A DNA stretch of 64,000 nucleotides from a virus (IMGVR_UViG_3300035516_000805); one strand, 5' to 3'; counted from the first letter of the stretch, positions 10,624 through 49,290 are shown. A program made the numbers and translations. The notes: a model not told the origin generated them from the letters alone.

Positions 10624-10650
10624 TGACATTATTAGTAATTAAATGTCATA
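10624..10650 (+). promoter_or_regulatory. class I promoter/operator TTGACATTA-N-AATGTCATA
   Basis: ttgacattattagtaattaaatgtcata, flanked by the inverted repeats ctactcta/tagagtag. Confidence 0.55.
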
Positions 10651-10685
10651 ACTAGAGTAGAAAATATTTTATAAGGAGATATAAA

Positions 10686-10862
10686 ATGGGATATTCATGG
10701 TCTGGGAAAAGAACATTAGAACATTGTGGGTTAATTACAAAAATGCAAGAAAATCCGAGGCAGCTAAACGGAAAATGTGAGGGATTTCAAAAGTCAACTT
10801 TTGATGATGAACCTTGTGAGATATGTAAAAAGTGTAAATTACATATTTACTATGAAAATTAA
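10686..10862 (+). CDS. small Cys-rich protein (58 aa)
   Basis: Downstream of class I promoter at 10624; RBS AAGGAG. Confidence 0.3.
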   Translation: MGYSWSGKRTLEHCGLITKMQENPRQLNGKCEGFQKSTFDDEPCEICKKCKLHIYYEN

Positions 10863-10965
10863 AAACATTATACAAACAACATATAGTAAATTAAAATAGA
10901 TAATAGTATAATTATATTTGAAAAATATAATTTTTACATAATTATTTGTTAAGAAAGGACTTTTT

Positions 10966-11181
10966 ATGAATTTTGTAAATGAAAAATTTAAAATTGATTT
11001 TCCATTGCCAACTGTTCTCAGAAATACTGTGGAAGAAGCTGAACAATTAGATGAAGATAATAATGAAGAATTTTATTGTGTTGCAGATATAATAGATGTT
11101 CTTGCAAAGGAAGCGTATGTGAATAAACTAATAACGCAAGAACAATGGGATATTCTTGTTAATCGTTATCCTTGTGAGTAA
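10966..11181 (+). CDS. hypothetical acidic protein
   Basis: 71-aa ORF immediately upstream of the tandem HipA-like genes. Confidence 0.5.
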   Translation: MNFVNEKFKIDFPLPTVLRNTVEEAEQLDEDNNEEFYCVADIIDVLAKEAYVNKLITQEQWDILVNRYPCE

Positions 11182-11202
11182 AAAAAGGAGGTAAAATTAA
11201 AT

Positions 11203-12213
11203 ATGGAAATTATAGATGTAAGTGATAATGCATATAGTTTTCGACATGGACGATATGGAGGACAAGCAGGAGATAAAGATGGTATTATTATTGATGGCGA
11301 AAACTGGATTGTAAAATATCCAAAATCAACTAGAAGTATGGAAGGAACAAATTTATCCTCTTATACTACTTCACCTTTATCAGAGTATATTGGAAGTCAT
11401 ATATATGAAATACTTGGATATAATGTTCATAAAACAAAACTTGTATATCGTAATAATCAAATAGCTGTGGCTTGTAAAGATTTTCAAATACATTTCGGTG
11501 ACTTAGCTGAAATAAGAACTCTTAAAAATGCTGCAAACAAAGAGATACAGTACTATAGTGATGAAGAATTGCCATTATCTGCAACAGGAGATAATGTGAA
11601 CTTAAACGAATTATTTTTCCATTTTCAAAATAATCCTTTATTAAATAATCCTGATTTAATAAAGCGTTTTTGGGAGTGTGTTATTGTAGATATTTTTATA
11701 GATAATAATGACAGAAACAATGGAAATTGGGGTTTATTATTTAATGAAAATACAGGAAAATATGATATTGCTCCAATTTACGATAATGGTAACTCTTTTA
11801 ACAATAAATTATCAGAATTTGGTATTACGCAAAAACTTAATAATTTAAATGAAAGTCAAATTATTGGAAACAGGACAGCTTATTCATTAAATGGACATAC
11901 TTTATCAGCCGTAAAGATGTTAAATTTGGAAAATAAAGACTTACAAAGAGCTATTTTAGAAGTTATTCCTAAAATAAATAAAAATATAAATATAATCAAA
12001 AATGTTATTGATGATATTCCAGTTAAATATAAAAATATTTTAGTTTGTTCAAATGAAAGAAAAGAATATTATAAACAATGCTTAGATATACGACTGACAA
12101 AGTTATTAATACCTACTTACCAAAAATGTCAAAATAAAATGCAATGTAGTGAAAAATCTTTAGAAGATGAATTTAATCATAATAATTTACTAGAAGATGA
12201 CATAGAAAAGTAA
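11203..12213 (+). CDS. HipA-like Ser/Thr kinase-fold protein (catalytic motif D-R-N, His replaced)
   Basis: IDNNDRNNGNWGLL and IAPIYDNG match the HipA_C catalytic loop NxDDHxKNxS and APxYD Mg-binding motif; RBS AAGGAGG. Confidence 0.6.
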   Translation: MEIIDVSDNAYSFRHGRYGGQAGDKDGIIIDGENWIVKYPKSTRSMEGTNLSSYTTSPLSEYIGSHIYEILGYNVHKTKLVYRNNQIAVACKDFQIHFGDLAEIRTLKNAANKEIQYYSDEELPLSATGDNVNLNELFFHFQNNPLLNNPDLIKRFWECVIVDIFIDNNDRNNGNWGLLFNENTGKYDIAPIYDNGNSFNNKLSEFGITQKLNNLNESQIIGNRTAYSLNGHTLSAVKMLNLENKDLQRAILEVIPKINKNINIIKNVIDDIPVKYKNILVCSNERKEYYKQCLDIRLTKLLIPTYQKCQNKMQCSEKSLEDEFNHNNLLEDDIEK

Positions 12214-12217
12214 AACA

Positions 12218-13207
12218 TTGTCTAATAAAGAGGAGATAGATAATAGAATGGAATTAATAGATTTTACAAATTGTAAAACAGACTTAACAGGTAACTATGC
12301 CGGTTCAGACCGAAAAAAGGCTATTATTTATAATGGCAATAAATATATGATTAAATTTGTGAACAAAATTGAAGAAAATATAGGCTGTCAAATCTTTAAA
12401 AGTATTGGATTTGATGTTCAAAATACTTTGTTAGGAACAATAAATAAATATACTGTTGTTGCCTGTCAAAATTTTATACCGGATAATTGCAAATTAATAG
12501 AATTTAAATTTATAGAAGGTGCTTTGTTTGAAGAAAAACCTAGCAAGATTCCGAGTATAGAACACATTTATGCAGCTATGACAAAGCCAAATGAATATTT
12601 TTCTAAAGAATTTGGAAAAATTGCATTAGAGAGATACTGGGATACTTTTATTGTAGATGCTTTATTAGGCAATTTTAACCGACATGCCAATAATTGGGGA
12701 TATTTAATTAATCAAGATACGTTAAAATTTTCCTTAGCTCCAATATATGATTGTGGAGCTTGCTTATATCCGCAAACACCTGATGAAGCTTTAAAATACA
12801 TTCTCACTAATCCTTATGAAATAAAAAAGAGAATTGATGTATTTCCTAAAGCAGCATTAAAAATAGGCAGTATAGAAAAAATTTCATATAAAGACCTGTT
12901 ATATTCGTGCGTATATGATGATTGCAATAAGTCATTGTTAAAAATAATGCCAAATATTAATTTAATGGAGATATTTGATATTGTAAAAAATACTCCAAGT
13001 ATTTCAGATATAAGAAAAGAATTTTATATTACAATGATAAATGAACGATATAATCAGTTACTATTAGAGCCATATATACATCTGATGTATAATTTGGAAT
13101 ATAATGAAATTAATAATATGGATAAACAAATAATAAAAAATTCATTACAAAATAAAAATGAATTGTCTTTTGATAAATTTTTACAAATAAGGGCAGTTGA
13201 AAGGTAA
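12218..13207 (+). CDS. HipA-like kinase-fold paralog, probable pseudokinase (catalytic Asp to Asn)
   Basis: GNFNRHANNWGYL and LAPIYDCG align with the HipA catalytic loop, with N at the catalytic Asp position; 4-nt gap from previous gene. Confidence 0.6.
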   Translation: MSNKEEIDNRMELIDFTNCKTDLTGNYAGSDRKKAIIYNGNKYMIKFVNKIEENIGCQIFKSIGFDVQNTLLGTINKYTVVACQNFIPDNCKLIEFKFIEGALFEEKPSKIPSIEHIYAAMTKPNEYFSKEFGKIALERYWDTFIVDALLGNFNRHANNWGYLINQDTLKFSLAPIYDCGACLYPQTPDEALKYILTNPYEIKKRIDVFPKAALKIGSIEKISYKDLLYSCVYDDCNKSLLKIMPNINLMEIFDIVKNTPSISDIRKEFYITMINERYNQLLLEPYIHLMYNLEYNEINNMDKQIIKNSLQNKNELSFDKFLQIRAVER

Positions 13208-48253: not shown

Positions 48254-48374
48254 AGAATTTGTAGTTTTCATCAATTTTTCATTAAAAATGAAAAATTTGA
48301 TTTTACCGTAAATTCTAAAGAATTTGCGGTGTAATGGAATTTCTATTTTAAAAATGTAAAAAATAGAATTTCCA

Positions 48375-48390
48375 TTTTACATTATTATAG
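48375..48390 (+). promoter_or_regulatory. class II motif
   Basis: ccattttacattattatagtagagc. Confidence 0.45.
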
Positions 48391-48448
48391 TAGAGCTTAA
48401 ATATTGCTAAGTTTAATATTATATTTTATTTTAATGGAGGACAATAAT

Positions 48449-49180
48449 ATGTTATCAGCAGAGAAATTAACAAACGTTGAATTTAGTTCAACAAAGACAG
48501 AAGAAGGATTACCACAGTATATGAGGATTTCTTTTGAAAGTGGTAAACAGACAACGGTTTCCTTACAGAATGATAAGTTTGGTCAGAATAAGAAGATTTA
48601 TGACAGACTTAAGAATTATAAGGATGGCAGCAAGTTTCCTGTAATTGTAAAGGAAAATGTTTTAACCAGAGATGGACAGGAATTGAAGTTTTTGAATAGT
48701 ATTAAGCCTTATTCCGGTCAGATGCTTGAGTGTGAGCAGCAGAATTTTCATGGAGTAAAGGTTCCAATTCCAAAGGAAGCTGCTATTTTAGGTAAGATTG
48801 TGGAAAATGAAGATAAGACGGCTCTTATAATCAGAACAACCTTTTATAACGCAAAGGAAAAGAAGAATGAAAAAGCAGATATTCCATTTACTGTTGTCAA
48901 TGAAGGTAAAAATATTACCATTACAGCCGATATTGGAGCTGATATGATTGGACATGATGTATGTGTTATCGTTCCGGTTGATAAGTGTACTATGATTGGC
49001 GACCAGATTGTAGAAAAGAGAGTTACGGCGATTGACGGTATCGACTCATCTCTTGAAATGGAAGACCTTGGTAAGACAGAAAGAGCATCATTTGATTTTA
49101 TTTCTGCAAATAATTATCGTGAACAGGCTGCGGAAAAGACGGAACCGGATTCTCCCAGTCAGGATGAACCAGAAAAGTAA
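48449..49180 (+). CDS. hypothetical protein
   Basis: ATG after GGAGG RBS; the track's alternative start is 48404; followed by terminator. Confidence 0.55.
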   Translation: MLSAEKLTNVEFSSTKTEEGLPQYMRISFESGKQTTVSLQNDKFGQNKKIYDRLKNYKDGSKFPVIVKENVLTRDGQELKFLNSIKPYSGQMLECEQQNFHGVKVPIPKEAAILGKIVENEDKTALIIRTTFYNAKEKKNEKADIPFTVVNEGKNITITADIGADMIGHDVCVIVPVDKCTMIGDQIVEKRVTAIDGIDSSLEMEDLGKTERASFDFISANNYREQAAEKTEPDSPSQDEPEK

Positions 49181-49217
49181 TTAAGATGGAAGTTCTTTTA
49201 GAACTATAAATAAAAAA

Positions 49218-49256
49218 AAGACATCTAAGTTATTAGCTAAGATGTCTTTTTTATTT
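49218..49256 (+). terminator. intrinsic terminator
   Basis: agacatcttagc...gctaagatgtct hairpin followed by tttttt. Confidence 0.75.
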
Positions 49257-49260
49257 ACTA

Positions 49261-49290
49261 TTGAAATTATTAGTAATACAATGTCATATT
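49261..49290 (+). promoter_or_regulatory. class I promoter/operator
   Basis: ttgaaattattagtaatacaatgtcatatt. Confidence 0.5.

Follow-up and report, generated by a model that had tools for sequence, protein, structure and literature searches.

Near-identical predicted sigma-70-type promoters with C at position −12 on an apparent plasmid-like element, and their possible pairing with its own sigma factor

Which factor reads a short motif that recurs ahead of many operons of one mobile element, and does the palindrome within this motif mark the binding site of a regulator? The question is raised by IMGVR_UViG_3300035516_000805, a stretch of 64,000 nucleotides (nt) whose full length is referred to below as the window. 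An original prediction had described here a promoter/operator motif recurring between 10624 and 49290, and had proposed that one dimeric regulator, with the XRE protein encoded at 2662 and the helix-turn-helix (HTH) protein encoded at 15852 as candidates, acts on all copies through palindromic half-sites overlapping the −35 element. Our analysis indicates that the motif, named class A, is very probably a family of near-identical promoters of the sigma-70 type. Whether these promoters and a sigma factor encoded on the same element constitute a private system, linked via residue His154 of that protein, appears to us an evenly balanced matter.

Copies and anatomy of the class A motif

The exact pattern TTGACATTA-N-AATGTCATA was matched 5 times against 0.00 expected and, when up to 3 mismatches were allowed, 14 times against 0.46 ± 0.67 in dinucleotide-preserving shuffles, so the motif is clearly enriched over a shuffled background. 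A scan with a weight matrix built from the copies located 13 sites in the window (10 main copies and 3 variants), all on the + strand. The motif is thus real and was correctly counted in the original prediction, including the three variants between 28.7 and 29.9 kilobases (kb). Its geometry had been described less accurately: TTGACATTA and AATGTCATA are separated by exactly 10 nt throughout, instead of by 11-13, and the first copy begins at 10623, one base earlier than given. Flanking DNA contains a further + strand copy, ~2.4 kb past the window end, and a minus-strand copy, ~400 base pairs (bp) ahead of the first base of the window, which gives 15 aligned copies. As the minus-strand copy precedes a minus-strand gene, encoding TnpB, copy orientation follows gene direction. 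The claim that all copies point the same way therefore holds inside the window, where nearly all genes lie on the + strand (77 of the 88 open reading frames (ORFs) in a greedy ORF set), but not beyond it.

Aligned on their right-hand block, the 15 copies share the layout TTGACA, 15 nt, TGT, CATAtT, ~6 nt, aGTAaAAA. The TGA of the −35 element, the TGT, C at −12 (C-12), A-11 and A-9 are present in 15/15 copies, T at −13 (T-13) is likewise invariant, and the closing T of the −10 element (T-7) is found in 14/15. Other positions are looser: 14/15 copies keep TTGA, the complete hexamer TTGACA is seen in 9/15, its two closing positions being conserved in 10/15 and 12/15, respectively, and several spacer positions vary. 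The spacer between −35 and −10 measures 18 bp in all copies and ends in TGT; the −10 element begins with CATA in 13/15. Position by position, this conservation matches the contacts of a sigma-70-type promoter, namely −35, extended −10 (TG at −15/−14) and −10. The sole departure from that profile is a −10 element starting with C instead of T: where canonical TATAAT has T at −12, all 15 copies have C. The conserved downstream block noted earlier (aGTAaAAA) is real as well, and stands where transcription would be expected to start. A box CATTAn, located upstream within class A, was considered as an alternative −10 and rejected because its last base varies (T, A or C).

The position of the copies relative to genes also supports the promoter assignment made in the original prediction (a −35-like TTGACA plus a downstream element, ahead of many operons). 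From every copy, a start codon with a ribosome-binding site is reached within 25-124 nt, and several copies are shortly preceded by terminator-like hairpins with T runs. We infer that transcription initiates at class A copies. Copy 1 (10623-10652, TTGACA-N18(..TGT)-CATAAC) lies ahead of a small gene at 10686, and copy 2 (13626-13655, TTGACA-N18-CATATT) is followed by a gene with a ribosome-binding site that starts at 13777. Copy 3 (15702-15731, TTGACA-N18-CATAGT) precedes the gene of a 429-amino-acid (aa) HTH_26 protein (15852). The ATG behind copy 4 (18458-18487, CTGACA-N18-CATATT) is at 18512, 25 nt after the −10; copy 5 (18895-18924, TTGACA-N18-CATATT) is placed ahead of gene 18955, and copy 6 (20926-20955, TTGACA-N18-CAAAAT) ahead of a run of small genes at 20998-23848. 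Among the variants, that at 28726-28755 (TTGATT-N18-CAGAAT) is the weakest of all copies and precedes a DUF5688 gene that starts at 28788, behind a ribosome-binding site; that at 29737-29766 (TTGATT-N18-CATATT) directly follows a terminator-like hairpin (29684-29712), and that at 29912-29941 (TTGATT-N18-CATATT) lies ahead of gene 30031. Further along the same strand, the copy at 33003-33032 (TTGATA-N18-CATATT) heads a topoisomerase III gene (33117), and the copy at 37638-37667 (TTGACA-N18-CATAGT) an operon for a Zn-ribbon protein, a signal peptidase and the actin-like Alp7A. Two RecD2-like helicase genes (start 41518) stand behind the copy at 41457-41486 (TTGACA-N18-CATATT), itself located after a terminator-like hairpin (41398-41421), while the last copy in the window (49261-49290, TTGAAA-N18-CATATT) precedes gene 49359 and a metallophosphatase gene.

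The copies at 33003 and 41457 belong to duplicates of a single ~200-nt cassette of terminator, promoter and leader (32835-33048 vs. 41355-41502, 89-97% identity). Class A copies would be paralogous sigma-70-family promoters, each heading one transcription unit, and their spacer would have stayed conserved because the promoters spread as duplicated cassettes. In the 41.4-kb cassette the helicase ATG comes after the ribosome-binding site of the leader; in its 33-kb counterpart this ATG has decayed to ATA, and a box of a second motif (class B, see below) and a new ribosome-binding site follow. Copy 10623 is enclosed by a perfect palindrome with 18-bp arms (10602-10619 / 10653-10670; AAAATATTTTCTACTCTA / TAGAGTAGAAAATATTTT). 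On the minus strand, 10602-10670 also reads ATGACA-N18-CAATGT followed by a start block AGTAGAAAA, which may be an antisense promoter directed into gene 9050-10585.

No Rfam family was found at the class A motif. In viral, genome and metagenome collections its exact 28-nt pattern was nowhere else present in multiple copies; single, chance-like matches were obtained, and no related element.

The palindrome within class A

The arms of the palindrome, TGACATT and AATGTCA, had been placed about 20 bp, or two helical turns, apart. Their centres are at motif positions 5 and 23, i.e., 18 bp apart, and are thus off helical phase, as half-sites facing the same side of the DNA would be ~10-11 or 21 bp apart. 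Of the seven arm pairs, four cannot but be complementary once TTGACA is combined with an 18-bp spacer, TG at −15/−14 and CA at −12/−11. The palindrome would in this way be a by-product of geometry: TGACA reads TGTCA on the opposite strand, and TGTCA is nothing other than TG, T and CA. The arm cores are also conserved unequally, with the right TGTCA in 15/15 copies and the left TGACA in 10/15; on the left side only TTGA is near-invariant, as in a −35 hexamer. Changes in one arm are never mirrored in the opposite arm, and five window copies carry such unmatched changes. The full 7-bp inverted repeat is present in 8/13 window copies, and the three variants have lost the left arm, yet keep TTGA exactly 18 bp from CATATT. 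The unequal conservation, the 18-bp distance and the forced pairs leave the proposed operator of a dimeric regulator without support; what looks like a palindrome is most likely a side effect of the promoter elements and not a site for a repressor.

Class B boxes and canonical promoters

By a repeat search and a pattern search we found a second intergenic motif, aTTTTA-CATTAT-TAAtAGTAGA (aTTTTACATTATTAATAGTAGA). Its 11-mer TTTTACATTAT occurs exactly 24 times against 0.59 expected; 22 of the exact 11-mers and a near-match at 49316 lie between genes and are directed toward the neighbouring gene. These class B boxes span 959-63816 of the window. On the + strand, TTTACATTAT starts at 960, 4547, 6466, 8985, 13299, 17784, 18426, 24126, 25337, 33071, 35211, 37709, 47357, 48376, 49316, 50879, 52710, 54196 (ahead of the sigma gene), 58571, 61333 and 63797, and two boxes on the minus strand (265-275 and 4377-4387) precede minus-strand genes. 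At four sites the two classes are arranged in tandem (18426/18458, with the box 32 nt upstream of copy 4, 33003/33071, 37638/37709 and 49261/49316).

Class B has no conserved −35. Its TTTACA was tried as a −35 and rejected, since nothing is conserved 16-19 bp downstream, and for this reason we read CATTAT as the class B −10. Both classes have in common a hexamer CAT...T followed ~5 nt later by AGTAG/AGTAA. If CATTAT is indeed a −10, then ~38 promoter-like sites of the element would have C-12 in common. The element also has canonical promoters of the sigma-A type, in which −12 is T, at 2605-2633 (TTGACG-N17-TATAAT, ahead of the XRE repressor-like gene) and at 23091-23119 (TTGATA-N17-TATAAT, carrying a TG), and their coexistence with the motifs marks C-12 as a feature of a separate class. 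They may be entry points of the element that are read by the host.

Several structured repeats were also noted. For five class B copies (8983-9036, 52708-52761, 58569-58622, 61322-61383 and 63795-63848) the predicted transcript opens with a 9-10-bp hairpin (TAGTAGAAAC...GTTTCTACTA) and then a T run; a terminator-like structure immediately after a promoter suggests attenuation/antitermination control or a 5′ stabiliser. A palindromic repeat, TACCGTAAATTCTAAAGAATTTACGGTGTA, is usually found just upstream of class B boxes (24011-24044, 48235-48333, 50811-50844, 58506-58539 and 61268-61301). Lastly, an intergenic double-hairpin family (ACTTAGACAGTAGTT...AACTACTGTCTAAG, then GAAGTTCTAAAGAACTTCC) is located mostly between operons (568-599, 4438-4469, 8893-8959, 13508-13574, 15774-15840, 18283-18314, 20821-20887, 25403-25434, 32946-33012, 46401-46432 and 53536-53567). 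It gave no match in Rfam, and its members could be terminators or REP-like elements.

The element's sigma factor and the TnpB promoter

A divergent primary-like factor of the sigma-70 family (342 aa; Pfam Sigma70_r2, 9.5e-10, and r4, 1.7e-11) is encoded at 54238-55266 on the + strand. Its best non-self homologue is 36% identical, and the protein falls below every curated NCBIfam cut-off, hence it is a member of no named subfamily. We aligned it to solved RpoD/SigA chains and to homologues, using the residue numbering of E. coli sigma-70 (FSTYAMIWIKHHITRYI in the element's protein vs. FSTYATWWIRQAITRSI in sigma-70). Region 2.4 reads WIKHHITR vs. WIRQAITR in sigma-70, and His154 (codon CAT at 54697-54699, + strand) aligns with Gln437, the residue that faces base pair −12; T440 and R441 are retained. 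Of 104 homologues alignable in region 2.4, 89 have Q at this position, 12 have T and 3 have H, the element's protein being one of these three. The other two His-bearing sigmas are found on a chromosome and on a second phage-like contig. Region 4.2 is conserved (RERVRQ, with R584, E585, R588 and Q589 retained), which fits a TTGACA −35. Changes Q437H and T440I are known suppressors of a T to C change at −12 (PMC2613000), and Q437H is a classic altered-specificity allele of E. coli sigma-70 with a preference for C-12 (Waldburger et al., 1990, as reviewed in PMC2613000).

The core of the proposed explanation is this occurrence of a rare His, at the residue that reads −12, on the same element as ~38 C-12 promoters. 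His154 would specify C-12, with the conserved region 4.2 accounting for TTGACA, and class A would be read by the RNA polymerase holoenzyme carrying the element's own primary-like sigma. Together with the −35-less class B promoters (TTTTA-CATTAT), the element would then own a partly private transcription system. That a single trans-acting factor serves the whole set, as the original prediction had it, is probable; the element's sigma factor is a likelier candidate for it than the suggested XRE or HTH proteins. A bolder form of the explanation, to which we give somewhat less than an even chance, is a semi-orthogonal system in which a sigma with Gln437 changed to His and a remodelled region 3.0 has retuned the −10 region to TGT-CATAnT, and in which ~40 promoters of two classes and a captured insertion sequence (IS) promoter have co-evolved with it.

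The captured promoter is that of a TnpB insertion sequence located ~0.6-1.8 kb before the window start (L017:7163-8413, minus strand). Its relatives number thousands at ~86% identity, many of them on chromosomal contigs of clostridial type, with 32-36% G+C and genes for Spo0A and SepF. In four independent chromosomal copies the −10 region of the TnpB promoter reads TGATATAAT or TGATATAGT, whereas the copy on the element reads TGTCATAAT and has no upstream TGACA partner; the T to C change at −12 is thus seen on the element only. The TnpB promoter does show that TGTCAT can arise as a unit without a palindrome.

A second comparison is offered by the closest homologues of the sigma, which have Thr at the Q437 position and are encoded on a phage-like contig (L077) with at least 8 copies of a CTTATTGACAAAAT...ATGATATAAT promoter. 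Families of consensus promoters that are near-identical and have conserved spacers are therefore ordinary in AT-rich mobile elements, and what is unusual in the present one is confined to the TGT-CAT −10 region and the 18-bp spacer.

The gene located immediately upstream of the sigma gene (53220-54125) gave a weak match to region 1.1 of sigma-70, short of the Pfam cut-off (E = 0.0047), and weak matches to GDSL lipases.

Alternative readings

A number of observations speak against a pairing of this sigma with these promoters. Both residues that read the extended −10 TG in E. coli are lost from region 3.0 (H455 to C, E458 to Q), yet TGT is invariant in class A, so that host sigma-A could be the class A reader. 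Changes W433 to I and Y425 to V make the sigma atypical. Its gene itself stands behind a class B box (54196), which leaves the start-up of the system unexplained. On the phage-like contig with a His-type sigma no recognisable promoter family was found, and the TnpB comparison represents one event, spotted post hoc. In addition, a further TGTCA is present 10 nt upstream of the copies at 33003 and 41457; together with the −35 it forms an operator-like ATGTCA-N6-TGACAT (32990-33010 for the first of the two).

The last observation, like the loss of H455 and E458, after which TGT would perhaps be read by another factor, is to the credit of the model closest to the original prediction. In that model, a single dimeric regulator from the element (for instance XRE 2662 or HTH 15852) binds a palindromic operator, TGACATT-N11-AATGTCA, with which promoters for host sigma-A overlap, and C-12 and T-13 serve to complete the right half-site. 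The element does carry both HTH genes, and the intact repeat is seen in a majority of the window copies. We nevertheless regard the operator as unlikely, given the asymmetry of the arms, the lack of mirrored changes, the variants that drop the left arm and retain the promoter spacing, and the off-phase centres with their promoter-forced pairs; moreover, C-12 recurs where there is no palindrome, in the TnpB promoter and in ~23 boxes of class B. Ordinary strong host sigma-A promoters, spread by cassette duplication, would explain much of the same pattern, with C-12, T-13 and the palindrome as functionally meaningless quirks inherited from a founder copy and the sigma unrelated. Cassette duplication is visible at 32835-33048 and 41355-41502, a similar promoter family exists on L077, and it is established for extended −10 promoters that a perfect −35 and TG can offset a poor −12. 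What such an account leaves aside is that C-12 stays at 15/15 in copies whose other positions have drifted, that the unrelated class B shares it, that the TnpB promoter changed from T to C on this element only, and that a His rare at Q437 (3/104) is found by coincidence on the same element; a founder effect is in our view improbable.

Considerably less probable is a host sporulation sigma (of the sigma-E, sigma-K or sigma-G type) as the reader. Sporulation sigma −10 boxes start with CATA, as do 13/15 copies here, and Spo0A and SepF are encoded on the chromosomal contigs bearing the IS. However, the −35 is a sigma-A-type TTGACA, accompanied by TG at −15/−14, and not of the sporulation type; the bases downstream misfit CATAnnnTA, and the host assignment is indirect. 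Least probable of all, and to our minds barely credible, is a role of the inverted repeat as RNA or single-stranded DNA, i.e., as a terminator/insulator hairpin or a single-strand promoter of a conjugative leading region, although 41458-41482 was flagged as terminator-like in a scan and the element has a Mob_Pre relaxase. Predicted hairpins are weak, at ~−5 kcal/mol for the majority of copies and ~0 to −2 for three of them, and on this energy an RNA hairpin or terminator was rejected; with 2 G-C pairs and an 11-nt loop, the repeat differs from the stable G+C-rich stem and U run of an intrinsic terminator, and stronger, G+C-containing terminators are already present upstream. Single-strand promoters require long hairpins that rebuild both hexamers, whereas each hexamer sits in a different arm here.

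Gene content and nature of the element

The window has 27% G+C, and overlapping contigs indicate an element of at least ~110 kb. Genes in the window code for topoisomerase III, three RecD2/PIF1-like helicases, an Alp7A-type actin, a flotillin, an SNF2 helicase, a signal peptidase, a PIN-domain protein and the sigma-70-family protein, as well as HipA-like kinases, Fic proteins and a DUF5688 protein; flanking DNA from the same metagenome adds genes for a DnaE-type polymerase, a Mob_Pre relaxase and TnpB. Searched as 20-kb pieces, the window had no DNA-level match in phage and plasmid collections, and at the protein level the matches were distant. No publication was found for the accessions of the samples. 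No phage structural signal was obtained with PHROGs for 10 large unknown proteins. Because of this, and because Alp7A, topoisomerase III, Mob_Pre, DUF5688 and iterons are present, we read the source as a large plasmid-like element, uncultured, rather than a phage. The TnpB relatives on clostridial-type chromosomes hint at the host lineage, which is likely that of a spore-forming clostridial bacterium, an indirect assignment.

Toxin-like cargo is dense at 11203-13207, 23417-23848, 55361-55933, 60217-61266 and 62841-63770, and comprises two tandem HipA_C kinases, two PIN-domain proteins and two Fic proteins, one of them with an HTH domain. Tandem 16-bp iterons (TTTAACCTTTATAGAT-like; 6207-6342) are located upstream of an AAA+ (SpoVK/CbbX-like) gene. 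Beside them is an AT-rich stretch of ~280 nt (5863-6144), repeated with 88-93% identity at 35236-35521 ahead of helicase gene 35609; the iterons and this repeat are candidate replication-origin regions. A HEARO RNA, of the kind associated with IscB/HNH elements, was detected by Rfam at 17401-17611 on the + strand (97.4 bits vs. a gathering score of 83). No IscB/HNH gene is recognisable beside it, and the neighbouring 141-aa ORF has no Pfam match.

Relation to known systems and implications

In TTGACA, TG at −15/−14, A-11, T-7 and its placement upstream of genes, class A resembles extended −10 promoters of sigma-70/sigma-A (TTGACA-N17-TGnTATAAT; TRTG in the Gram-positive "−16 region"), from which it differs in C-12, invariant T-13 and a spacer fixed at 18 instead of 17 bp. 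A family of many near-identical copies, in which flanks and spacer are conserved and each copy heads a short operon, is also known from AT-rich phages and plasmids, as on contig L077, and from the early promoters of phages T5 and SPO1; those of AT-rich phages and plasmids, unlike the present one, use canonical TATAAT and are read by unmodified host polymerase. A short palindrome recurring at many promoters of one plasmid is known from the KorA/KorB operators of IncP-1. Kor operators are symmetric and conserved independently of the hexamers, in contrast to the class A symmetry, which is unequally conserved and largely explained by the hexamers.

On the side of the sigma factor, the E. coli Q437H allele likewise places a His opposite base pair −12 and is paired with C-12 promoters. 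It is a laboratory point mutant, whereas the sigma described here is natural and highly diverged, comes with a whole promoter set and has W433I, H455C and E458Q in addition; its specificity is predicted. Regulons of plasmid- and phage-encoded sigma factors are already known. SigN (ZpdN) of the B. subtilis plasmid pBS32 drives a plasmid-restricted regulon that includes DNA-metabolism genes and has a shared promoter consensus (PMC6751061). Much as in pBS32, the element is large and plasmid-like and has its own sigma, whose gene stands behind a promoter of the kind concerned, and its consensus is confined to it within the three collections searched and distinct from the housekeeping one (C-12/T-13 vs. 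T-12 at 2605 and 23091). SigN is, however, an alternative sigma of a distinct kind, whose consensus is ATTTACGTTT...AGATATAA, while the factor described here is primary-like, with TTGACA kept and only the −10 region changed, and is not known to be tied to DNA damage, and the dependence of the promoters on it is predicted from sequence.

Should the pairing fail, what remains is a clean map of the operons of a plasmid-like element that had not been characterised before. Should it hold, it would provide a natural example of a specificity switch so far known mainly as a laboratory allele (Q437H, C-12), and a case of a mobile element that insulates its own genes from host transcription. In the semi-orthogonal form, genes of the element would be read poorly by the host sigma and well by the element's own. 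A pairing that holds would also supply a ready orthogonal sigma/promoter pair for low-GC Gram-positive hosts, and a rule by which changes in promoters could be predicted from sigma sequences in metagenomes.

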